Assembly: GCA_965243185.1 (NCBI GenBank)
Contig: OZ251531.1
Span: 2,214,532 to 2,278,531, forward strand
Direction of reading: 5' to 3'
Source: Dehalococcoidia bacterium
GTDB taxonomy: Bacteria; Chloroflexota; Dehalococcoidia; Lucifugimonadales; UBA3495
Length of the DNA: 64,000 nt
The notes below the pieces were generated by a model that saw nothing but the letters and a program-made list of their open reading frames with translations, did no database searches and was not told the origin of the DNA. A program made the translations under genes and the position numbers. Positions 160 through 56,584 of the stretch are shown piece by piece; the stretch's first letter is position 1; each line of letters starts with the position of its first letter.

Positions 160-948
160 CTACAGCCCCAAAATGTTCTCCAAGCCCACCGCCAACCCCG
201 GCTTTTTCACCACTTCCCGAATACAGCGCATCACCCCCGGCATATAGCAGTCCCGGCTCAAAGTGTCGTGGCGCAGGGCTATTGTCTGCCCGGCAGCCCC
301 CATAATAACCTCGTGATGCGCGCTGCGGCCGGGCATTCGGATGCTGTGGATAGTTACGCCGTTATACTCCCCGCCCCGCGTATCCGGCAAATTCTCCCGT
401 TCCGGGTAGTTGCGGGTAAAACTGCGCTGGTCGCCGATGCCCTTGGCCAAAGCCATCGCAAATCCGGAAGGCGCGTCAATCTTGGCTTCATGATGGGCTT
501 CCACAATGTCCACATAGTCGAAAAACGGCGCCGCCTGCTCGACCAGTTTTTTCAGGATAACCGCCCCCAAGGCAAAGTTGGGCGCGACGATAACCCCAAT
601 GCCCCGTTCCTTGGCCAAAGCGTCCAGTCGGGCCAAATCGGCGTCCGTCAGTCCGCTGACCCCCAACACCAGGTTGACCCCCCGGGCCGCGGCCACCGGC
701 GCCGCCGCCATCGCAACGGCGGCATTGGTAAAATCCACCAGAACCCCCGGGCCGGTCTGCTCCAGTACCTGCTCCAAGTTGGTGGACAACGGAACTTCCC
801 CGCCATCAGGCAAAGCCAGCCCATCGCCCCGTTCCCGGCGGCAGACCCCGCCCACCAGAACCAAATCCTCCTCCCGGCCCAGGGCGGCCACTGTTTCCAT
901 CCCCATTTTCCCGGTTGCCCCGTTGATTGCCACCCGTATTGACGCCAT
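160..948 (-). CDS. dapB: 4-hydroxy-tetrahydrodipicolinate reductase
   Basis: 262-aa ORF with N-terminal NAD(P)-binding INGATGKMG and the diagnostic VEAHHEAKIDAPSG motif. Confidence 0.9.
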   Translation of the reverse strand: MASIRVAINGATGKMGMETVAALGREEDLVLVGGVCRRERGDGLALPDGGEVPLSTNLEQVLEQTGPGVLVDFTNAAVAMAAAPVAAARGVNLVLGVSGLTDADLARLDALAKERGIGVIVAPNFALGAVILKKLVEQAAPFFDYVDIVEAHHEAKIDAPSGFAMALAKGIGDQRSFTRNYPERENLPDTRGGEYNGVTIHSIRMPGRSAHHEVIMGAAGQTIALRHDTLSRDCYMPGVMRCIREVVKKPGLAVGLENILGL

Positions 949-1070
949 TGCAATCCCCCTTGCGCCCGCCGCAGCCGGCAGACTGAATCGCCCGGTATCT
1001 TACCACCGCCCGCCGGCCGCTGCCATTCCCTGCCGGGAGCAACGCCAAGGCAATTGCATCCTAATTATAT

Positions 1071-1079
1071 TGGTATAAT
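1071..1079 (+). promoter_or_regulatory. Extended -10 promoter (TGGTATAAT), with TTGCAT upstream
   Basis: tggtataat ends 1 nt before element A1. A TTGCAT box lies upstream at suboptimal (14 nt) spacing. Confidence 0.45.
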
Positions 1080-1080
1080 T

Positions 1081-1220
1081 GGTATTCTCAACACGGGTTG
1101 GCGTGAGGTAAAACAAGGAAAAGTCGCCCCGACCAAGAAAGGGATTCCTATTGATTCGCTGGTGCTGCTTTGGCTCCGACAAGGCCGTTTTTAGCAGTGC
1201 CAACCCGTGTTGAGAATACC
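1081..1220 (+). repeat. A-type element copy A1: ~140 nt with 22-bp perfect terminal inverted repeats (candidate structured RNA or MITE)
   Basis: GGTATTCTCAACACGGGTTGGC ... GCCAACCCGTGTTGAGAATACC. A second copy at 34955-35093 is ~85-90% identical by eye. Confidence 0.85.
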
Positions 1221-1321: not shown

Positions 1322-1350
1322 TTGACTACCCGCCCTTGACCCGCTAAAAT
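1322..1350 (+). promoter_or_regulatory. sigma70-type promoter TTGACT-N17-TAAAAT giving a near-leaderless PHP mRNA
   Basis: TTGACT at 1322-1327, a 17-nt spacer, TAAAAT at 1345-1350. The ATG is at 1360. Confidence 0.5.
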
Positions 1351-1359
1351 CATTCCCAA

Positions 1360-2058
1360 ATGGCTCGCATCTTTGACCTCCATATCCACACCACCAAGGG
1401 CAGCGCCGACAGCAGCCTCTCTCCCGAGGATTTGATTCTCGAAGCGGAACGGCTGGGCTTGCGCGGCTTGTGCATTACCGAACACAGCGGCCCTTGGGAT
1501 CGCCACGAATTCGAGCGGTTCGCCGCCCAACATAATGTCGTCCTGGTGCGGGCGATGGAAGCCGATACCGACATGGGGCATATGCTGGCTTTCGGGCTGG
1601 ACCAGTACCAATCCGGCTTTCACAAGGCCGCCGAACTGTGCCGGGCAGCTCGGGCCGCCGGCGGATTTGTAGTCAGCGCCCATCCCTTTCGCGGCGTCTT
1701 GGGCAAGCATATGCGGGAACGCCCCTATCTCTACCGCTCTTTGCCTAACGAACCCTTGCCCCAACTGCCGGAGGATGCCTTGACGCATCCGGTATTCCAG
1801 CTGGCTGATGCCGTCGAAGTCGTCAACGGCGGCACCGCCGACGAGGAAAATGCCTTTGCGATGGCCGTTGCCAGCAAGTTGGGGTTGCCGGTCACCGGCG
1901 GTAGCGATGCCCATTCCGTCCACGGTTTGGGCCGCTATGTTACCGCCTTTGCCGATGAAATCCATACCCAGGATGAGTTTATCACCGCCCTGCGCGCCGG
2001 CGGCTTTTTCCCGGCGGTGGGCTTGCGCGCCGGCCAACTGCGCCCCTACACTGGATAG
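1360..2058 (+). CDS. PHP-domain metal-dependent phosphoesterase
   Basis: N-terminal DLHIHT, a central ITEH motif and C-terminal GGSDAHS, which are typical PHP motifs. Confidence 0.8.
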   Translation: MARIFDLHIHTTKGSADSSLSPEDLILEAERLGLRGLCITEHSGPWDRHEFERFAAQHNVVLVRAMEADTDMGHMLAFGLDQYQSGFHKAAELCRAARAAGGFVVSAHPFRGVLGKHMRERPYLYRSLPNEPLPQLPEDALTHPVFQLADAVEVVNGGTADEENAFAMAVASKLGLPVTGGSDAHSVHGLGRYVTAFADEIHTQDEFITALRAGGFFPAVGLRAGQLRPYTG

Positions 2059-2157: not shown

Positions 2158-5025
2158 GTGATGTCCCTCGGTCTGCAATTCCCGGCAACTTCCGCCTTGG
2201 AGCGGACTTTTGTTGCCCTGGACTTGGAAACTACCGGGTTGAACGCCGACCGGGGGGATAAAGTTATCCAGATTGGGGCAGTCAAGTTTCAAGGCGACCG
2301 GGTTATCGACCGCTTTGATACCTTTGTCAACCCCGGCAAAGACATCCCCGACTTTATCCAACGCTTGACCGGCATCCGCCCCGACCAAGTGCGGCGCGCC
2401 CCCCACTTCTCCTCGGTCAGCTATGACTTGGAGAGCTTTATCGAAGGCCATCCCATCATCGGCCACAACATCAGCTTTGACCTGAAATTTCTGGAAGTCG
2501 AGGGGCTGTCTCTGGCTAATCCCAGCTACGATACTTGGGATTTGGCTTACTTTCTGTTGCCGCGCAACCCGGAATACAACTTGCAATCCTTCATCCGTCA
2601 GTTTGACCTTTCCAGCGCCAAGGCGCACCAAGCCATTGACGATGCTGACGCCGCCCGCCAACTGTTTCTGCTGCTGCTGCGCCGGGCGGGCGAACTGGAG
2701 CCGGGCTTGCTGGCGTGGGTGCAGCAGCTGGCCCGCCGCAGCAACTGGCGCGTCGCCGACTTGCTGACCGGATTGGAAAGCGGCAACGGCCGTAATGGCG
2801 GCCCGGCCCTGTTTGAGGCCGCCGGGCTGAAACTGCACAGCTTGGCCGCCAAAGTTGGGCAGCCGGAACGCCGCCGCTACGATAATACTTTGCTCCATCT
2901 GGATGAAGCCAAGGCCGCCGGCTTGATGGGCCCGGACGGCCCCTTTGCTAAAACCTTTCCCAATTTCGAGCAGCGGCCGCAGCAGTCCGAAATGCTGGCC
3001 GCCGTAGCCCAAGCCATCTACCAGGGGCAGCATCTGATGGTCGAGGGCGGCACCGGTGTGGGCAAGTCAATGGCTTACCTGCTGCCGGCGGCCCTCTTTG
3101 CCCTTTCCCGCAATCAACGGGTGGTCATTTCCACCAACACCATCAACTTGCAGGAGCAGTTGATTAACAAGGATATTCCCGCACTGAATCAGGTTTTAGA
3201 GGAAGCCGGGGTTGTCGAGCCGGGTTCGATTAAATACGCCTTGCTGAAGGGGCGGGCTAATTATCTGTGCCTGAGCCGTTGGAATTATCTTGCTAATGGC
3301 GATGCTTTGGACCCGGCGGAAGCCCGCTTGCTCAGCAAAACGGCGGTTTGGCTGCAAGATGCTGGAACTGCCGATGGCGATCGCAGCGACTTGAACCTGG
3401 GGCGGGATGCCGGCAACTGGAACAAGGTATCCGCCGGGGAACGCATCCGCTGCCCCAATCTGCTCAACGGCGCCGGCCCCTGTTTCGTCCGCAGCTCCCG
3501 GGAACGGGCCGAGCAAGCCCATATTGTCGTGGTCAACCACGCCTTGCTGCTGTCCGACCTGATGCGCGGCGGCAGTATCATCCCCGACTACCAGCGCGTC
3601 ATCATCGACGAAGCCCACAACCTCGAGGATGCCGCCACCAATGAATTCAGCTTTGAGATAGCCCCGGAGCGGCTGAATGAGGAAGTCGAAGCCCTGACCC
3701 GCTTGACCCGGGAGGTGCGGCTGGCCTTGGGCGTCGAGGGACTGGATTCCACCCGGCGGCAGCAAGGGGAGCGGCTGATTGGTGATGGGGAAGCCCTATT
3801 GCCGCCGCTGCGGGACAATTGGGCTAACCTGTGGGTGGCTACGGAAGTTTTTTTCAACGCCCAGCGCAGCAAAAATGAGGAACTGCGGCTCCAGCCGCAG
3901 CACCGCAGTCAGCGCAGTTGGGCTGACTTGACTCTGGTTTGGGAAAAGGTGGATGTGGGCTTGCATAACCTCAGCCAAATCCTGGCAGACTTGGCGGACT
4001 TTCTGGAAAACAACCCCATTCCCCAAGCCAAAGAGCAGGCCGGCTTGACCCTGGAATCCGGCAATGTGCAGAGCCGCCTCGAGGAACTGAAAGGCCAGTT
4101 AGCGGCCATTATCGGCCGGGATGATGCCGCCGACATCCACTGGTTGCGCCGCGACCAGGGCAAAAGCGAGATAGCTTTTCACTCGGCGCCGCTGGAAGTT
4201 GGCCCCATCCTGTACGAACGGCTCTACTCCAAAAAGGAAAGCGTAGTTCTGACCAGCGCCACCCTGACCGTCAGTGATAGTTTTGACTTTCCCTTGCATC
4301 GCTTGGGACTGCCGTCCGCTGAAACCAATCAGCTGAAAGTAGGTTCGCCTTTTGACTACAAGCGGGCCGCCCTGCTGCTGACCCCGGAGGATACTTCCGC
4401 GCCCAATCATCCCGAATATCCCCGGGATCTATCCCGCGCCCTGGTTGACTTGGGCAAAACCCTGTCCGGGCGTACGATGGCTCTGTTCACTTCCCACAAC
4501 ACCCTCCGCAATGTGGAACGGCGCATCCGGGAACCCCTGAAAGCCGCCGGCATCGAGCTGTTGGCTCAGAATATCGACGGTTCCGCCCAGCAGATTGGCC
4601 GCCGTTTTGCCGATAATCACGACAAAGACATTCCGACGGTGCTGATTGGTACTAACAGCTTTTGGGAAGGGGTGGATTTCCCCGGCATCCTGAAAGCTCT
4701 GGTCATCACCCGACTGCCCTTTCCGGTGCCGACCAACCCGATAGTTGCCGCCCGCTCCGAATTGTACGAACGCAACGCCTTTAACGAATACTCCGTGCCG
4801 TTGGCGGTACTGCGCTTTCGGCAGGGGATGGGGCGGCTAATCCGCAGCAAGAGCGACAGCGGCGTGGTAGTGGTGCTGGATCAGCGCATCGTCAGCCAGG
4901 GCTACGGGCGGACTTTCTTTCAATCCATCCCGGACTGCACCCAGCACCCGGTCAGCTTGTCCAGCCTCGGGGAGTTGGCGGGCCGCTGGGTAACCCGGGA
5001 TAATCGCGGCGGCGGCCGGGGCTGA
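2158..5025 (+). CDS. dinG: DinG-family helicase fused to an N-terminal DnaQ-like 3'-5' exonuclease
   Basis: Exonuclease motifs LDLETTG, GHNISFD and HQAIDDAD; Walker A GTGVGKS; DEAH box IIDEAHNL. 955 aa. Confidence 0.88.
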   Translation: MMSLGLQFPATSALERTFVALDLETTGLNADRGDKVIQIGAVKFQGDRVIDRFDTFVNPGKDIPDFIQRLTGIRPDQVRRAPHFSSVSYDLESFIEGHPIIGHNISFDLKFLEVEGLSLANPSYDTWDLAYFLLPRNPEYNLQSFIRQFDLSSAKAHQAIDDADAARQLFLLLLRRAGELEPGLLAWVQQLARRSNWRVADLLTGLESGNGRNGGPALFEAAGLKLHSLAAKVGQPERRRYDNTLLHLDEAKAAGLMGPDGPFAKTFPNFEQRPQQSEMLAAVAQAIYQGQHLMVEGGTGVGKSMAYLLPAALFALSRNQRVVISTNTINLQEQLINKDIPALNQVLEEAGVVEPGSIKYALLKGRANYLCLSRWNYLANGDALDPAEARLLSKTAVWLQDAGTADGDRSDLNLGRDAGNWNKVSAGERIRCPNLLNGAGPCFVRSSRERAEQAHIVVVNHALLLSDLMRGGSIIPDYQRVIIDEAHNLEDAATNEFSFEIAPERLNEEVEALTRLTREVRLALGVEGLDSTRRQQGERLIGDGEALLPPLRDNWANLWVATEVFFNAQRSKNEELRLQPQHRSQRSWADLTLVWEKVDVGLHNLSQILADLADFLENNPIPQAKEQAGLTLESGNVQSRLEELKGQLAAIIGRDDAADIHWLRRDQGKSEIAFHSAPLEVGPILYERLYSKKESVVLTSATLTVSDSFDFPLHRLGLPSAETNQLKVGSPFDYKRAALLLTPEDTSAPNHPEYPRDLSRALVDLGKTLSGRTMALFTSHNTLRNVERRIREPLKAAGIELLAQNIDGSAQQIGRRFADNHDKDIPTVLIGTNSFWEGVDFPGILKALVITRLPFPVPTNPIVAARSELYERNAFNEYSVPLAVLRFRQGMGRLIRSKSDSGVVVVLDQRIVSQGYGRTFFQSIPDCTQHPVSLSSLGELAGRWVTRDNRGGGRG

Positions 5026-5957
5026 TGGTGGAGCTAATCGTTGACCGCCCCGTGGACCTGGAAGCCAGCTTGCTGGGCGGGCAAGCCCATCGTTGGCGGC
5101 CGGAAACGCCGGACGAAAACCCGGAAACGGAACTGGCGGAAAGCGGGATAATCTGGTACTCTGGCGTCCTCCGCGGCAACTTCATCCGCATCCGCCAAAT
5201 TACTCCCCAACGAATGGAGTTCCATTCTGCCCCCTGGCCGGAGGCAGCCGTTATCCCGCTGCTGCAAAGCTACTTCCGTATGGATGATGACCTCGACAGC
5301 ATCCACGCCCAAATCTGCCAGGATGAACGGGTGGCGGCGATGGCAGACCGCTACCCCGGCTTGCGGATTCTACGGCAAGAGCCGTGGGAGTGTCTGGTGG
5401 CCTACATCTGCTCCGCCAATTCCAACATCAAGCGCATCCATCAGGTATTGGAAAATATCGCCGGGGCTTGCGGCGACCCCATTGACCTGAAGGGCATCCG
5501 TCGCTATGCTTTTCCTAGGCCGGCTGACTTGGCGGCCGCCGGGGAAGCGGAATTGCGCCGCTTGGGGCTGGGGTTTCGCGCTCCCTATGTGGACCGGGCG
5601 GCTCAGGAAGTAGCCAGCGGCGACTTGGACTTGAACGCCCTAGTACGCCTGCCTTATGCCCCGGCTAAAGAACGCTTGCTCGAGTGTTACGGCATCGGCA
5701 GCAAAATCGCCGATTGCATCGCCGTCTTTTCTCTGGAAAAGTTGGAAGCCTTTCCCATCGATGTCTGGGTGCGGCGGGCTTTGGGCGAATGGTACTTCCC
5801 CGGTCAAAAGACGCCCCCGGACCGGGAACTGTTGGCTTGGGCGCAAAGCTACTTCGGCCCCTACGCCGGCTACGCCCAGCAGTACCTCTTTCACGGGCGG
5901 CGTCTGGAAAAACAAACGGTGGAATCCCCGGCAGCGTACCGGGAATCGGGAGGATAG
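5025..5957 (+). CDS. ogg: 8-oxoguanine DNA glycosylase (OGG1 type), paralog 1, canonical
   Basis: OGG_N motif GGQAHRWR; LRQEPWECL; HhH-GPD motif YGIGSKIADC...FPIDVW with Lys and Asp retained. The start overlaps the dinG stop (TGATG). Confidence 0.85.
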   Translation: MVELIVDRPVDLEASLLGGQAHRWRPETPDENPETELAESGIIWYSGVLRGNFIRIRQITPQRMEFHSAPWPEAAVIPLLQSYFRMDDDLDSIHAQICQDERVAAMADRYPGLRILRQEPWECLVAYICSANSNIKRIHQVLENIAGACGDPIDLKGIRRYAFPRPADLAAAGEAELRRLGLGFRAPYVDRAAQEVASGDLDLNALVRLPYAPAKERLLECYGIGSKIADCIAVFSLEKLEAFPIDVWVRRALGEWYFPGQKTPPDRELLAWAQSYFGPYAGYAQQYLFHGRRLEKQTVESPAAYRESGG

Positions 5958-5962
5958 ACCTA

Positions 5963-6832
5963 ATGGAACTGGATACCCGCGGCCAACCCTTCGACTTGGA
6001 ATTCACCCTGTTCAGCGGCCAGGCTTTCCGCTGGGCTCGGGAAAAGGATACCCCGGATAGCTGGTTCTCCGGCGTAGTGCAGGGCAACCTGATCAGAATA
6101 CGCCAGACCGATCTGGGCATCGAATTCCGCAGCACCCTGCCCGAAGGAATGACCCAATACCACCTGCAAAACTACTTCCGAATGGGGGACGATGTAGCCG
6201 CCATTTATGCGGAAATCTGCCACGACTGGCGGGTGGAGATGATGGTGCGGGAATACTGGGGAATGCGGCTGCTGCGGCAGGAACCCTGGGAGTGTCTGAT
6301 TGCTCACCTGTGTTCCCCGGACAACAGCGTGGCCCAAGTCAGTCAAATTGTCGAGCGGCTGTCGGAAACCCTGGGCAACGCTATATCCCTGGACAGCGAA
6401 ACCCGCTATTCCTTTCCCACTCCGGAGCGGCTGCTTGAAGCCGGCCCGGAGGGTCTGGAGCGGGCGCATCTGGGGCCGGAGCGGGCGACCCATCTTTACC
6501 AGGCCGCCCAAGTGGTAGCCGACGGTTCTCTGGACTTGTACGCTTTGGGGGATATTCCTTACATCCACGCCAAAAACCGCCTGCTCCGCTACCCCGGCGT
6601 CAACCCCCAAATCGCCGACGCCGTCCTGCTCTTTTCCCTCGACAAGTTCGAGGCTTTCCCCATCGACCGGACGGCGGCCCGGGCTTTGGCGGAAAAATAC
6701 TTCCCCGGCCAGGAGCCCCCGGAACAGGAGGAACTGCCCGACTGGACCGAACTGTTTCAGGAACACTTTGGCCCATACGCCGGCTATGCCGGGCAGTTTC
6801 TCTTTCACGGCATCCGGATGGGGCAGTTTTAG
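5963..6832 (+). CDS. OGG1-like glycosylase paralog 2, lacking the catalytic Lys
   Basis: SGQAFRWAR and LRQEPWECL are present, but the HhH motif reads GVNPQIADA (Lys to Gln, Cys to Ala). GGGAGGA RBS upstream of ATG 5963. Confidence 0.75.
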   Translation: MELDTRGQPFDLEFTLFSGQAFRWAREKDTPDSWFSGVVQGNLIRIRQTDLGIEFRSTLPEGMTQYHLQNYFRMGDDVAAIYAEICHDWRVEMMVREYWGMRLLRQEPWECLIAHLCSPDNSVAQVSQIVERLSETLGNAISLDSETRYSFPTPERLLEAGPEGLERAHLGPERATHLYQAAQVVADGSLDLYALGDIPYIHAKNRLLRYPGVNPQIADAVLLFSLDKFEAFPIDRTAARALAEKYFPGQEPPEQEELPDWTELFQEHFGPYAGYAGQFLFHGIRMGQF

Positions 6833-6850
6833 GGCAGGCGCGGGGTTGCT

Positions 6851-7708
6851 ATGGAACTGGAATATGACGCCGGCCAGCCGCTGGACTTGAACATATCCCT
6901 GCGGATGGGGCAAGCCTTTCGCTGGAAAGCCGCCGCCGATGGCTGGTTCAGCGGCGTAGTGCGCGGCCAGTTCATCCAAATCCGCAAGGTCCGCGACGGG
7001 CTGCTGGAGTTTCAAGCCGCCCCCGGCCCGGACGCCAAGGCCGCGGCCATCATCAGCGATTACCTGCGGTTGGATGAGGATATTACCGCCATCTATGTCG
7101 ATCTCAGTAAGAGGGACGGGAAAATTGCGGAACTGGTCGCGAAATACCGGGGTTTGCGGATTTTGCGGCAAGAGCCGTGGGAGTGTTTGGTATCATACAT
7201 CCTGTCCGCCCAATCGCCGATACCCCGCATTGAAAGGAATGTTAAGGCGTTGGCCGACCAATTCGGCGACCGTATCGTACCGGGAATGTCGGCATTTCCT
7301 ACGCCGCGGCAACTGGCAGAAGTAAGCCAAGACGAAATTTCCCAAGTGCTGGTCGGATTCAAGCGATACGCCGTGAGCGTATCAGGAGCGGCTCGGGAAG
7401 TTGCGGGCGAGCGGCTGGACTTGGATAGCTTGGCAAAGTTGGATTATGAACCAGCCAAGCAACGGTTAAAGCAGTGTTATGGGGTCGGCGATAAAGTTGC
7501 CGACTGTGTGCTGCTGTTTTCACTGGATAAACCTGAAGCATTTCCGATTGACCGGCACATCGGCCGAGCCTTGTCTGATTACTACTTCCCAAGAGTAAAA
7601 ACGCCGTCTGACGCCAAACTCCGGGATTGGGCGCAAAATCACTTTGGCCGCTACGCCGGCTATGCCGGGCAGTTCCTGTTTTACGAGGAAAGGCCGGTGC
7701 GGAACTAG
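6851..7708 (+). CDS. OGG1-like glycosylase paralog 3
   Basis: MGQAFRWK, LRQEPWECL and YGVGDKVADC...FPIDRH, with Lys and Asp retained. Confidence 0.8.
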   Translation: MELEYDAGQPLDLNISLRMGQAFRWKAAADGWFSGVVRGQFIQIRKVRDGLLEFQAAPGPDAKAAAIISDYLRLDEDITAIYVDLSKRDGKIAELVAKYRGLRILRQEPWECLVSYILSAQSPIPRIERNVKALADQFGDRIVPGMSAFPTPRQLAEVSQDEISQVLVGFKRYAVSVSGAAREVAGERLDLDSLAKLDYEPAKQRLKQCYGVGDKVADCVLLFSLDKPEAFPIDRHIGRALSDYYFPRVKTPSDAKLRDWAQNHFGRYAGYAGQFLFYEERPVRN

Positions 7709-7799: not shown

Positions 7800-8093
7800 A
7801 TGGCAGTTTCTGACCGCAATACTGACCAGTCCCCCGACAAGTTCAGCTGGAAACGCTTCCTCAGCGGGCTTTTCGGTAGCAACATCCGGGAGACCATTGC
7901 CGACATCCGGGCGATTCGCGGAAAGCGTCAAACTGCCATTGCTGCATCCGACCAAAGCGCGCATAAGCCCGATTGGAAGCACATATTCAGCGGACTTTTC
8001 GGTAGCACTATCCGGGAAACTATCGCCGACCTCCGGATTATCCGCGATGGTATTCGCCATCGCCCGCCGGAACATCCCCCGGAAGCCAAGTAA
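7800..8093 (+). CDS. Small hypothetical protein (97 aa) with an internal tandem repeat
   Basis: KFSWKRFLSGLFGSNIRETIADIRAIRG and KPDWKHIFSGLFGSTIRETIADLRIIRD repeat within one ORF. Internal ATG chosen because the longer ORF overlaps the paralog 3 end. Confidence 0.5.
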   Translation: MAVSDRNTDQSPDKFSWKRFLSGLFGSNIRETIADIRAIRGKRQTAIAASDQSAHKPDWKHIFSGLFGSTIRETIADLRIIRDGIRHRPPEHPPEAK

Positions 8094-34954: not shown

Positions 34955-35093
34955 GGTATTCTCAACACGGGTTGGCATAAGTTAAAACAGGGAAAAATCG
35001 CCCCGACCAAGAAGGGGATTCCTATTGATTCTCTGACACTGCTTCGGCTCCGACAAGTCCGTTTTTAGCAGTGCCAGCCCGTGTTGAGAACAC
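34955..35093 (+). repeat. A-type element copy A2
   Basis: Same 22-nt arms as A1, with one G:U and one mismatch, and a conserved interior (CGCCCCGACCAAGAA, GGATTCCTATTGATTC, GGCTCCGACAAG, CCGTTTTTAGCAGTGCC). Confidence 0.85.
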
Positions 35094-35107
35094 ACGAATC
35101 GTGGCGG

Positions 35108-35136
35108 CATTGACCGGAATTGCCAGATAATCTATA
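35108..35136 (+). promoter_or_regulatory. sigma70-type promoter TTGACC-N17-TATATT
   Basis: ttgacc ggaattgccagataatc tatatt, located between A2 and B2. Confidence 0.45.
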
Positions 35137-35181
35137 TTTATTAGCCAGCTTTAGAGCCGGCTATTTTATGCGTTTCGGAGT

Positions 35182-35236
35182 GGATTCCGTTTGCTTTTAG
35201 GGCATATTCAACTTAACGACAAAATCGTAAAGTTGA
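35182..35236 (+). repeat. B-type unit copy B2 (degenerate)
   Basis: ggattccgtttgcttttagggcatattcaacttaacgacaaaatcgtaaagttgaa is ~70% identical to B1 by eye, with the same inner CAACTT/AAGTTG stem. Confidence 0.6.
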
Positions 35237-35369
35237 ACGCAGATTGTTGCTTTGCAATACCAAGCCCGGTTGCGCGGTAAAATCTGCCTTAACTAAAAAT
35301 GCTCTGAAAGCAAATGGAGACATCGCGGGGATTAAGGCACAGCGGCCGCCGGGCGGCAAGGAGCTATTG

Positions 35370-38300
35370 ATGGACGGAGATGGAGCAAATCGTCTCTTTT
35401 TCTGCCCGGCCGGGCCAGCGGCCGCGGCGGCCTTGGGATCTTATGTCCGGGCCATACAAGGGGATGACCCCTTGGCGCCGGTTACCGTGGTCGGGCCATC
35501 GACTTACGCCAACCTGGCCTTGCGGCGGGAGTTGGGGCGCGGCGGGTTGGCTAATGTGGGATTTGTGCATCCGCATCGGTTGGCCGATTTGTTGGGTGGG
35601 CCGCGGCTGGCGGCGCGGGGATTGCGGCCGCTGACGCCGCTAGTGGAAAGCCAAGCCCTACGGCAGGCGGTGAGCCAGACGGACGGCTTGCTGCGGGAAA
35701 AAGGCTACCATCCCGCTACGCACCGGACGCTAAAGGCGGCGATACGGGAACTGGCGCAGCTCTCCCCGGCGGAAAAGACGGCGTGGCAAGGGCGCGGCAG
35801 CCAGTTGAGCCGGGAGATATTGCAGATTGAGACCGCCTTTCGGGAGCTTACGGCCGGTTACTACACCGAGGCCGAGGATTTGGCGCAGGCGGCGGCGTAC
35901 GGGGTAAGAACCGGCGGACAGGGCAACGCCCTGACCGACTTGGGATTGGTGATTTTCTTTCAACTGCGGCGGATTACGGCGGGGCAGCAGGAGCTTATTG
36001 AATCGTTAGCGGCCGCCGGTAAATGCGCCGTTTTTTTGCCGCTGGTGGGCGATGACGAAGGCGACCGGGCGGCGCGGGAAATCGCGGAACGATTGACCGG
36101 CGCTTTGGGGACGCCGACGGTTTATGCTGAGGTTGGGTCAAGTAGGGATGGAAATGCGCCGCCCGCCGACCGGGTTTCCGGGATGCGGCTGCTGGTAGCC
36201 CAAGACGCCCATCAGGAAATACGGTGGGTTATCCGCAACATTTTCCGCCAGATCAGCAGCGGTACGCCGCTGCACCGGATCGCGGTTCTGTATCGGCAGA
36301 CTTTCTACGGCGCGCTGATACCGGAGGAGTTGGCATTAGCCGGTCTGCCGGCAGCCGGGCCAAATACGACGCCGCTGACGCAAACCGGGCCGGGGCGGAC
36401 GCTGACCGGCTTGGTCAACTTGGCGCAAGGCGTCCGGGCGGCGCAAGGGCGGGAACTGCCCCGGGAGGAAGTTACGGCGTGGCTGACCGCTTGCCCGGTG
36501 CGCTTTCCGGGCGGGTTAGCGGCGGATTTTAACCCCAGCCAGTGGGACAATATATCCAAGCAAGCCGGCATCGTCCGGGGCTTGGCGCAGTGGCAGGATA
36601 AGCTGAGCCGGTTGGCTAGTGACCGGGCGCGGCAAGCGGAACGTTTAGCTGCGCAGGGGGAAGTGTCCGAGGCCAAGGCGGAATTGATGGCGGCGGAAAG
36701 CCGGGCCGCCGGACAACTGCGCGGGTTTATTACCGGGTTGGCGGCGGCGTTGATGCCGCCAGCCGAGGGCAGTTCGTGGGGCGAGTTTGCTCAGTGGGTC
36801 AGGAAACTGCTGGAACGCTACGGGGCGGCGGCTACCCTGTCCGATGCCGAAGCGCAAAACCGGGAACGGATTGGCGAAGTAGTAGCAAGCCTGGCCGAAC
36901 TGGATCAACTGGAGACCGGCGGTATCGGGTCTGACCGGTTCCGGGAGACTCTGGATGAAGCCTTGGCCGGAACGCCGGGACGCTTGGGGGCAACGGGGCA
37001 AGGGGTCTTTGTTGCGCCGTTAAGCCAAGCGGCCGGAATGTCCTTTGACGCGGTACATCTGGTCGGAATGGTCGAGGGGGCGTTTCCGCCGCCACTACGG
37101 GAATCGCCGCTGCTGCCGGAGTCGGAAAAACCGGCTGAAGTGGGCGCTGGTTGGCGGCCATCCCGGTCGGAACGGTTAGCCGATGAGCGGCACAACTTTA
37201 TGGCGGCCCTGGCGGCGGCGCCGCTGCAAACCCTTTCCTATCCCTTGGCCGACGCCGGCGGTTCCCGGGGCAACTACCCGTCCCGGTGGTTTCTGGAACA
37301 GGCAACGCGGCTGGAAGGGAAAGCGGTGCGGAGTTCCACCCTGAAATCCCTGGTCAATCAAAAGGAGTGGCTGACCGCCATCGGTTCCCCGGAACAGGAA
37401 TTTGGCAGCATCGCGGGTTTGGCGGCGGCCGACCAGCACGATTATGACCTGGCAAGTTTGTGGGATTGCCGGGAACGGAGCGGCGGCATTCGGCAGCATC
37501 CCCTGGCTAAAGAGGGCATCCTGGCCGGCGCGCTGCAAGTAGGTCGGAGCCGCTACAATCCCTATTACGGCTCCTACTTTTCGGAATGGAACGGCAACTT
37601 GGCTGGGGCCGCCGGCCCGTCGGGATTGGCCGGCGGGTTGAGCGGACAAGTGCTTTCGCCGACCGGCTTGGAAAAGTGGTCCAACTGCCCCTTCAGCTAC
37701 TTTCTGGGGCAGCAACTGCGGTTGAGCGCGCAGGACAGCCCGGAGGACATCTACCGCATATCGGCCTTGGAGCAGGGTTCGCTGATCCACGAAATCCTGG
37801 AGCAGTTTATCGGGCAAGCCCGGGAGCGGGGAACGGTGCCGCCGCCGGGGCAAGGGTGGACGGATGCGGACGCCGGGGTTTTGCAGGAAATTGCGGAAAG
37901 GGCGTTCCAGGAAGCGGAAAGCCGGGGCATTACCGGACGGACGCTGCTGTGGCGAATGTCCCAAGCGGATATTCGGGATGATTTGACGGCATTTCTCGAA
38001 GCGGATACGTATGTGCGGGAACGGTTCGGCTTGTCGCCGGCGCGGGAGGAAGCGCGGTTCGGCATTGACGGCGACAACGCCGCCGATAGCTGGGCGGCGG
38101 CGGTCTATCGGCTGCGGGACGGGACGGAAATACGGTTCCGGGGCGTGATTGACCGGGTTGACCGGTCGGCAGACGGGCGGGCGGCTTTGGTGCTGGACTA
38201 CAAGAGCGGGGGCGCCAGTCGGTACGCCGGTTTGGAGGAGGATGCCATTGATAAGGGGCGGCGATTGCAGTTGGGCATTTACGGACTGGCGGCGCAGCAG

Positions 38301-54938: not shown

Positions 54939-55364
54939 CCGCCGCCGCGCCCTCCCCCAACAGCAAAACCGGCCCCGATTAAAGGAATCAAGGCCGGCTA
55001 ACTCTCTTTGGTTTTGCCCGTCAATAAATACGATGGTACGCATAAAAGTACACCCGCCCGGGGTGTCTTGACTAAAGCCAAGTCCATGCGGGCGGGGAGA
55101 AAATCAATATAATCCTAGCCGGAGGGCAATCCTTTGTCCAGGGGCCGGCCGCCGATTTTCCTGAATTGCCGGAACTAAAAGACCCGCACCATCCCCCAAA
55201 CTCCAAAAGTTTTGAGGGGGTGCGGGGGAACTTTTACAAAAGTTCCCCCGCCGTCTCCCCGGCTGACAACCGTCATCCCCACCCTCTCACCGTCATTCCC
55301 ACGAAAGTGGGAATCCAGAACCCCCAATCCCAAAAACTAATCCGAAAATCCGTCTCAAACCCCC

Positions 55365-55393
55365 TTGACAACTACAAATCCACCCCCCATAAT
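55365..55393 (+). promoter_or_regulatory. Near-consensus sigma70 promoter TTGACA-N17-CATAAT
   Basis: ttgaca actacaaatccaccccc cataat. No ORF with an RBS follows it. Confidence 0.5.
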
Positions 55394-55399
55394 AATACC

Positions 55400-56160
55400 C
55401 GTCGAGGTCAGACCCGGCCCCTGGACGCAGGGACTTAAACGATTCGCTAGCTTACCGTTGCTTTACCGCCACAGCGCGCTGTGGGCGTCCGCCCAGCCCT
55501 AACCGGCAACGCGGCCGCCTCAACTCCTCCCCCGGGGAAAACGGCCCAGGAACCCGTATTCCCCAACCGGAGCGAACGGAAAACGGCAAATCCCAATCGC
55601 CGCCAAACCGCCGCCCCATCCTGATAGGAGTTCGAGCTTAGGGTTGACTGGAGCGTGGTCAACCAACGGTAGCCGGACTGGGCCAACCCGCCGGAATGGC
55701 CACCATACCAACCGGCGTCAGTAGCCAATTCAAGGTACAGCTGCCGTAATCGGCAGTCTGGTCGGGCATTACCGGAATGTGCAGCAAGGTATCCAACCGG
55801 CGTAGCAACCCAAATGACCAGCCTGCCAACCACCTTCCGCGACGGGCGGAACCCCTAGGTACCCAGGGGTTCCGCCAATACCGCTTTGCAATTTCTCCCC
55901 ATCCCCTTTCCCCCAACAACCGGCCGAAAAACACCGCCATCCCGGCCGTAACCGGAATGGCGGGCATCCATACTAAACGGTATGACCTCAGCCCAAATGC
56001 CGGATATTCTAATTCCGGTGCCGGGTTGTTTTGTAACCCATTGCGAACGGCACGAGGGAACCGTTGGCATAGTCCTCAGTCGCAAAATCGAGAGGTAGCA
56101 AGTGCCGGTCAACACCAGTTGGGGCCGGGAAAGAGTCAATGACTGGCCCCCTGTTACCAA
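55400..56160 (+). other. ORF-free, hairpin- and repeat-rich region (candidate large ncRNA or decayed element; strand uncertain)
   Basis: Only short overlapping ORFs in all six frames. 12-bp perfect stem at 55845-55876. ccggaatg...ccaaccggcgt units recur 81 nt apart (55691 and 55772). Confidence 0.3.
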
Positions 56161-56169
56161 CCTACGCTG

Positions 56170-56584
56170 CGGTTTCAGCCGGGGCTTATCGTACAGGAGT
56201 ATCTAATTCAGGCACTTAAAGAGCGTTACCCCCAACACCCGGTAGTCCAGATTAACGGCGGTATGTCCTTGGGCGAGAAGCGGCGAGGGCATTAACCTGC
56301 ACCAAAATTGCCATGTGCTGGTCAACTATGACTTGCCGTGGAACCCCAGCCGCTTGGTGCAAAGGGCCGGCCGGCTTTACCGCTATGGTCAGACCCAGCG
56401 GGTAATCGTCTTTAACCTGATGGCGGATGACGGGTTTGACAATCGGGCTATCAGCTTGATGTTGGAGCGGGTTGACCGGATTGCCGCCGCTCTGCGGCCG
56501 GTAAGCTCCGAGGTCACTTTCCAAAAGTTCGGCGACGCTGATGTAATCCTTTCCTGGAGGGCGTTCTGCCGTATAAAGGCGTAG
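56170..56584 (+). pseudogene. SNF2-family helicase C-terminal remnant (N-terminally truncated, internal deletion/frameshift near 56285)
   Basis: Frame 1 reads ...VQINGGMSLGEKRRGH*. The +1 frame continues GEGINLHQNCHVLVNYDLPWNPSRLVQRAGRLYRYGQ (helicase motifs V-VI). Confidence 0.7.

Follow-up and report, generated by a model that had tools for sequence, protein, structure and literature searches.

The question raised by this locus is whether a 140-nt element that occurs twice in a 64-kb stretch of DNA (hereafter the window, meaning the whole stretch analyzed) is a structured RNA or a MITE. Both copies lie in divergent promoter regions, 5' of DNA-repair genes, and from this position a regulatory role was suspected at first. 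The evidence assembled below makes it highly probable that the element, here called element A, represents a new low-copy MITE family, narrowly distributed in an uncultured Chloroflexota/Dehalococcoidia-like bacterium, and the best explanation is that of an ordinary genomic parasite and not of a new riboswitch or small RNA.

Two Copies of Element A in the Window

The two copies found in the window are as follows.

Positions 1081 to 1220: A1, 140-bp copy of the putative MITE; TIRs at 1081-1102 and 1199-1220, complementary at 22/22 positions; without a target-site duplication (TSD).
Positions 34955 to 35094: A2, second copy, in the same orientation as A1; TIRs at 34955-34976 and 35073-35094; without a TSD.

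A sequence-only reading of the window had proposed two copies of one ~140-nt element closed by a perfect 22-bp stem, and this is borne out: A1 and A2 differ at 15 of 140 bases, and the stem is perfect in A1, with three mismatches in the right arm of A2 leaving a TIR match of 19/22. Four sites in the window match the 22-nt arm GGTATTCTCAACACGGGTTGGC with no more than three mismatches, versus none in 100 shuffles, and the 22-bp TIR of the family reads GGTATTCTCAACACG[G/T]GTTGGC. The conserved blocks listed in the same reading exist as well, including a central 34-nt block that matches in A1 and A2 and is near-invariant across all four copies described here. Element A has a GC content of 48-51%, against 61% for the genome (and 61% for the window itself). 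The interior of A1 is the most diverged among the copies (12-13 of 96 positions), yet its arms are perfect, a combination that fits recent insertion from a diverged master copy; A2 is probably old, given its decayed right arm.

A1 has dapB (160-948, minus strand) to its left and a PHP phosphoesterase gene (1360-2058) to its right, the latter followed on its 3' side by an exonuclease-DinG helicase gene; A2 is flanked by a HAD hydrolase gene (minus strand) and by a PD-(D/E)XK AddB-like gene with a likely start at 35370. Pfam confirms the PHP domain and the RNase_T plus DinG-type helicase downstream of A1, and the PD-(D/E)XK AddB-like protein downstream of A2. Proteins labeled Dehalococcoidia, SAR202, or Chloroflexota match the PHP gene product best, and a search for records identical to the PHP protein of the window returned none.

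Downstream of the DinG gene, three tandem paralogous OGG_N/HhH-GPD (8-oxoguanine glycosylase-like) genes occupy positions 5004-7705 and appear as the direct repeat families D2-D4 with a spacing of ~900 bp; the relative L011 has two such genes and the relative L014 has one. A 73-nt direct repeat (7848-7920 and 7974-8046, 78% identity, 126 nt from start to start) follows, possibly a repeat within a coding sequence.

Copies in Related Bacteria Are Flanked by 8-bp Duplications

Since gene callers sometimes run open reading frames into repeats, further copies were sought by translating the element in six frames, joining the open-frame peptides, and using them as a protein-database query. The plus-strand frame of element A forms the C-terminal end of two predicted proteins, P0121 and P0122, and on the contig of each, blastn shows a full-length copy with 89-93% identity to A1 and A2. 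It should be noted that this peptide route detects only copies inside called reading frames, so that the genic location of both copies reflects ascertainment bias.

Contig L009, positions 2493-2632: copy of element A inside an N6_N4 methyltransferase remnant; TIRs perfect.
Contig L010, positions 3287-3426: copy of element A at the 3' end of a membrane-protein ORF; TIRs 21/22.

Both are metagenome contigs of related bacteria from project PANK22-1, the same project as the closest relative at the PHP locus. Exactly at both TIR ends, each copy is bounded by a perfect 8-bp direct repeat (AAATTTCT in L009 and TATTTCTG in L010), the chance of each such duplication being ~1.5e-5. The absence of a visible TSD reported in the sequence-only reading is true for A1 and A2 only. 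When the element and one TSD are subtracted from L009, the resulting protein reads ...FRNEISWRTT... and shows an unbroken Pfam N6_N4_Mtase match (residues 21-118, 52.4 bits), with the junction at residue 77/78, inside the match; the same subtraction in L010 restores the membrane-protein ORF with its natural stop, ending in AIANLFLVVLAWLYNPV. The four copies lie in four unrelated contexts: the dapB/PHP and HAD/AddB intergenic regions, the methyltransferase remnant, and the 3' end of the membrane-protein ORF.

The L009 and L010 copies form a subfamily in which both arms have changed together relative to the window copies (pair 16:125, G-C to T-A). Such a concerted change would be expected of ends recognized by one transposase and fits an RNA stem equally, and it is thus nondiscriminating.

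A Second Inverted-Repeat Family Adjoins Element A

Next to both window copies we found members of a second family, element B, with a third member at the start of the window.

Positions 1229 to 1306: B1, 78-bp inverted-repeat element of the second family; 23-bp TIRs GGTTCCGTTTCGTTTTAGCAGTT and AACTGCTAAAACAGAACGGAACC; 8 bp right of A1.
Positions 1221 to 1228: left copy of the 8-bp TSD of B1, CTGCCGCC.
Positions 1307 to 1314: right copy of the TSD of B1, CTGCCGCC; homology with L011 begins here.
Positions 35186 to 35318: B2, diverged and longer copy of element B; arms 83% complementary; 91 nt right of A2.
Positions 1 to 54: B0, third copy, in reverse orientation, cut by the window start, downstream of dapB.

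The relatives L011 and L004 have a single CTGACGCC at the homologous place, representing the empty site of B1; this empty site together with the 8-bp TSD indicates that small TIR elements are mobile in the lineage. The B copies have the core ATCGTAAAGTTGA in common, and the interior of B is itself palindromic, as in TTCAACTTAACGA-N5-TCGTAAAGTTGAA in B2. The right inner part of element A, CCGTTTTTAGCAG (1185-1197), resembles the B TIR CCGTTTCGTTTTAGCAG. Among the short-range inverted repeats of the window, A1, A2, and B1 are the top three and the only ones with arms of at least 22 nt and complementarity of at least 79%. By a crude gene map, A and B occur together in 2 of ~25 intergenic gaps, a co-occurrence with P ~0.01 under independent insertion by a rough estimate. 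Clustering and nesting of small repeats are known (PMC10969869), and the clustering of A and B could reflect a common target preference or a common transposase.

Two other stretches of the window may be recorded here. Between A2 and B2, a hairpin followed by a T-run (35143-35172, TAGCCAGCTTTAGAGCCGGCTATTTTAT) resembles a plus-strand intrinsic terminator, with a promoter-like TTGACC-17-TATATT (35110-35138) on its 5' side. Positions 54939-56314 comprise ~1.4 kb with no confident ORF in the crude gene map and contain a 32-bp near-perfect palindrome (55845-55876, GGCGGAACCCCTAGGT/ACCCAGGGGTTCCGCC); neither Rfam nor tRNA matches were found in the window, this region included.

The Orthologous Loci of Relatives and the Synteny Breakpoint

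For comparison we fetched orthologous PHP-DinG loci from relatives with 85-94% identity in the PHP protein. All fetched relatives keep the PHP-DinG operon together with a conserved promoter (TTGACT-17-TA[A/C]AAT) placed 8-9 nt before the ATG, and element A is absent upstream of PHP in L003/L011, L004-L007, and L012-L014; across the ~85 kb of these PHP-DinG loci, neither BLAST nor nhmmer detected a copy of A. In the closest relative, L011 (PHP protein 94% identical), nucleotide identity of 85% starts at window position 1307, from where the window aligns with L011 position 6421 onward, so that synteny starts exactly at the right edge of B1. On the 5' side of this point L011 encodes a HepT-like toxin-antitoxin pair and spermidine-synthase genes, not dapB. 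As the homology begins just right of A1 and B1, A1 lies at a synteny breakpoint. The PHP loci of the relatives are without A, but synteny breaks at the element edge, and a true orthologous empty site was obtained for neither A1 nor A2; a search with the AddB-like N-terminus for the A2 site gave only homologues of up to 47% identity.

One relative, L005 (contig of 3.3 Mb), has tandem-like repeats of its own 5' of PHP (2770-2945, …CCCCTGGAG[AG]CG[AC]GG…GTCAAC…), which are unrelated to A and B.

Promoters and Candidate Promoters around A1

Three promoter-like features surround A1.

Positions 1322 to 1350, plus strand: promoter of the PHP gene itself, TTGACT-17-TAAAAT, 9 nt before the ATG at 1360; conserved in relatives without A and B.
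Positions 1064 to 1091, minus strand: candidate hybrid promoter facing dapB; -35 box TTGAGA (1091 to 1086), 16-nt spacer, -10 box TATAAT (1069 to 1064).
Positions 1071 to 1079, plus strand: extended -10-like TGGTATAAT in the left flank of A1, not part of the element.

The PHP promoter ends 8-9 nt before the ATG with no Shine-Dalgarno sequence (window 1322-1362; L003 2960-3003; L005 and L006 ~2955-3003), and the PHP mRNA is probably leaderless. As this promoter lies downstream of A1 and B1, A1 is not part of the PHP mRNA unless by read-through. The candidate promoter facing dapB has its -35 box within the left TIR of A1 and its -10 box in the flank, agreeing with the consensus at 11 of 12 positions (a consensus match only); judged from the sequence, the left arm of A1 may supply the -35 box. 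Hybrid promoters are known for other MITEs and IS elements (PMC10969869). The TGGTATAAT box that the sequence-only reading placed near A1 is present, and it belongs to the flank of this copy and not to the element, being absent from A2, L009, and L010.

Distribution of Element A

Genome and metagenome contigs were scanned with exact patterns of both arms (CTCAACACGGG...CCCGTGTTGAG), which covered the GGG arm variant only and excluded the GTG/CAC variant of L009 and L010, so that the copy count is a lower bound. These scans with the GGG-variant arms returned no true copies, only chance or unrelated matches: L001 is a contig-end palindrome, L008 a different hairpin, and L002 a masked Planctomycete repeat family that has only an 11-12-mer in common with element A. 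The whole 8-kb L002 locus (CP070744.1, a Phycisphaerales MAG) is dense with this other palindromic family (…GCCACTGGCGGCTTGTCCGCCAGTGGCACAC… with CTCAACACGGGT ends), which is partly masked with N. Scans of viral contigs and blastn against plasmid and phage collections gave no match to A. Neither the window nor any fetched locus yielded additional copies to nhmmer profiles of A and B, and an autonomous IS with the TIRs of A was likewise not found there. Searching the literature for the TIR string or for Chloroflexi MITEs yielded nothing relevant. The A family appears to be rare and confined to one lineage, with the count from the GGG-variant DNA scans again a lower bound.

Alternative Explanations for Element A

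Under one alternative, element A is a structured noncoding RNA gene or family (sRNA-like), a ~140-nt unit with a 22-bp closing stem that may travel on, or descend from, a mobile element; we consider this very improbable. Either strand of A1 and A2 forms a fold much more stable than those of shuffled sequences (~-61 kcal/mol, z ~-6 to -7). Nearly all of this stability comes from the TIRs, however: the plus-strand centroid of A1 is essentially the terminal stem only, and in this long closing stem the two ends bound by the transposase simply pair. In an alignment of the four copies, two pairs change on both sides, but 48 of 500 shuffles score at least as high as the observed covariation (0.116), and TIR symmetry accounts just as well for the covarying pair in the terminal stem. 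The inner helices that had been drawn in A1 and A2 in the sequence-only reading are mostly invariant in the four copies: AGGAA/UUCCU shows A-to-G changes only (two), which keep G-U pairs on the plus strand, and CUGCU/AGCAG has a compensatory change (pair 85:117, C-G to U-A in L009), but two of the five pairs of this helix are broken in L010, and one pair of the GUCG/CGAC hairpin is lost in three of the four copies. The near-invariance of the 34-nt central block and the TGGTATAAT box directly 5' of A1 could likewise speak for an RNA, but this promoter box occurs in the A1 flank only, and there is no terminator in common. Nowhere in the window does an Rfam match reach its gathering threshold; relaxing the cutoff to E ≤ 10 added only miRNA-type hairpin matches that score far below threshold. 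The TSDs and the insertion inside ORFs indicate that location is set by transposition and not by function, and of the two possibilities originally put forward, structured RNA or MITE, it is the MITE that is supported, by TSDs at unrelated loci and by the split methyltransferase, the structured RNA being without positive support. Integron attC sites, retron ncRNAs, bridge RNAs, and omega-RNAs were rejected, as there is no adjacent integrase, RT, IS110, or TnpB gene and TSDs are present.

That element A serves instead as a cis-regulatory leader or operator of DNA-repair operons (PHP-DinG and AddB-like) would accord with the common orientation of A1 and A2 5' of Pfam-confirmed nuclease/helicase genes and with the identical order at both sites of A, then B, then gene. 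We nevertheless hold this to be extremely unlikely: the relatives keep the PHP-DinG operon and its promoter without A or B, and the absence of A 5' of these orthologous operons means that it is not a conserved leader; the L009 and L010 copies are not near repair genes; and the PHP promoter downstream of A1 and B1 leaves the element outside the PHP mRNA unless there is read-through. Equally unlikely is kinship in kind with the Rickettsia RPEs, palindromic insertions that encode a peptide, with the frame of A fused into host proteins. The plus-strand frame (GILNT.W...KQGK.APTKKGIPIDSL.LL.LRQ.RF) does stay free of stop codons for the first 111 nt of each of the four copies; in L009 and L010 it is joined to a host ORF lying upstream, and about half of its base changes are synonymous (our own count from the four-copy alignment). 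Against this, the element plus TSD measures 140 + 8 = 148 bp, which is not a multiple of three, and the host frame is accordingly shifted in L010, with the ORF ended by the stop codon of the element in L009; a stop codon closes the frame in three copies out of four, the fused copies came from a protein search and owe their location in ORFs to ascertainment bias, the window copies are intergenic and without a start codon, and a HMMER search of 1.84 billion representative proteins with the element A peptide returned P0121 only. Read as genes in their own right, both frames were rejected, the plus-strand frame for its lack of a start codon and of clear purifying selection, and the 67-aa minus-strand ORF over A1 for the stop codon that cuts it in A2. 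No frame of element A encodes a transposase or contains a conserved ORF that begins with a start codon.

Discussion

Prokaryotic MITEs are defined as elements of <500 bp with TIRs of 4-30 bp that are AT-richer than their host and give stable stem-loop transcripts (PMC10969869). Element A agrees with this definition in its occurrence at four unrelated sites, its TIRs, its 8-bp TSD, its lack of coding capacity, and its lower GC content: it comprises 140 bp without a transposase, has 22-bp TIRs, carries TSDs in L009 and L010, and is found at unrelated loci. In the mechanism that we envisage, a transposase supplied in trans by an insertion sequence would bind both arms of A, cut out or copy the element, and insert it at a staggered 8-bp cut, which would leave the 8-bp TSD; both this transposase and its family are postulated. 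An 8-bp TSD with ends starting in GG fits several IS families, namely IS6, IS256, ISL3, IS1595, ISAs1, and IS66.

Several observations count against the MITE interpretation. Neither A1 nor A2 has a TSD; direct repeats of MITEs are present in younger copies and fade with time (PMC10969869), and the TSD of A2, with its decayed right arm, may have been lost through age, that of A1 perhaps by rearrangement or adjacent deletion at the element end at the synteny breakpoint. Only four copies are known, so that the multicopy character is weakly shown, and no autonomous IS with matching ends was detected in the window or the fetched loci. For A1 to combine perfect arms with a diverged interior, either its master copy must have been diverged itself or pairing must be under selection. 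Should L009 and L010 belong to the L011 lineage, element A (89-93%) would be better conserved than coding DNA (85%), which would require recent activity, horizontal transfer, or constraint. Finally, the co-occurrence of A and B is not predicted by random independent insertion. Some of these points lead to a further reading, in which A is a mobile element with a selected function (the 34-nt core or the hairpin RNA acting as a protein-binding site or sRNA), or in which A and B are mechanistically linked by the same transposase or by targeting of hairpin-containing promoter regions; it draws on the A-B pair occurring twice in the same order 5' of DNA-repair operons, on the arms of A1 being perfect despite the most diverged interior, and on conservation of A between lineages that may exceed that of coding DNA. 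We regard it as very improbable.

As a probable MITE, element A resembles the Correia element of Neisseria and QMITE2 of Coxiella in being small and noncoding with TIRs of ~22-26 bp and a TSD of several bp, in being AT-richer than the host, mostly intergenic next to promoters, and a very stable hairpin if transcribed, and in having a possible outward -35 box in its TIR and adjoining other small repeats (PMC10969869). No detectable sequence similarity links element A to a described family in the phage and plasmid collections or in Rfam. The Correia element uses a TA target site, whereas the TSD of element A is 8 bp. Known A copies are few, and their host belongs to an uncultured Chloroflexota/Dehalococcoidia-like lineage. 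With ERIC/REP-type repeats (~130 bp) element A has in common that it is an imperfect palindrome between genes and would form a long hairpin in read-through transcripts. REP sequences are 20-40 bp long and are moved by RAYT (IS200-like) transposases (PMC3733652), without TSDs; element A differs in its clean 8-bp TSDs, which point to a DDE-type cut-and-paste or copy-paste mechanism. A REP/BIME mobilized by RAYT or an IS200/IS605-derived PATE was rejected on these duplications and on the full-length TIRs, as opposed to subterminal hairpins. RPEs are likewise ~150-bp palindromes with an open frame that occur inside host ORFs, as A does, but they insert in frame, whereas the 148 bp of A plus TSD shift the frame and the window copies are intergenic.

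The biology of MITEs as understood is unchanged by element A. For annotation, it is advisable to mask the A and B hairpins as mobile repeats rather than to list them as candidate riboswitches or sRNAs, and the position of A1 and B1 at an exact synteny breakpoint makes them markers of genome rearrangement in the lineage. MITEs are poorly catalogued in uncultured Chloroflexota, and a family with defined ends and an 8-bp TSD provides a means of finding the active transposase; it also allows one to test whether the insertion of A1 rewired the dapB promoter.
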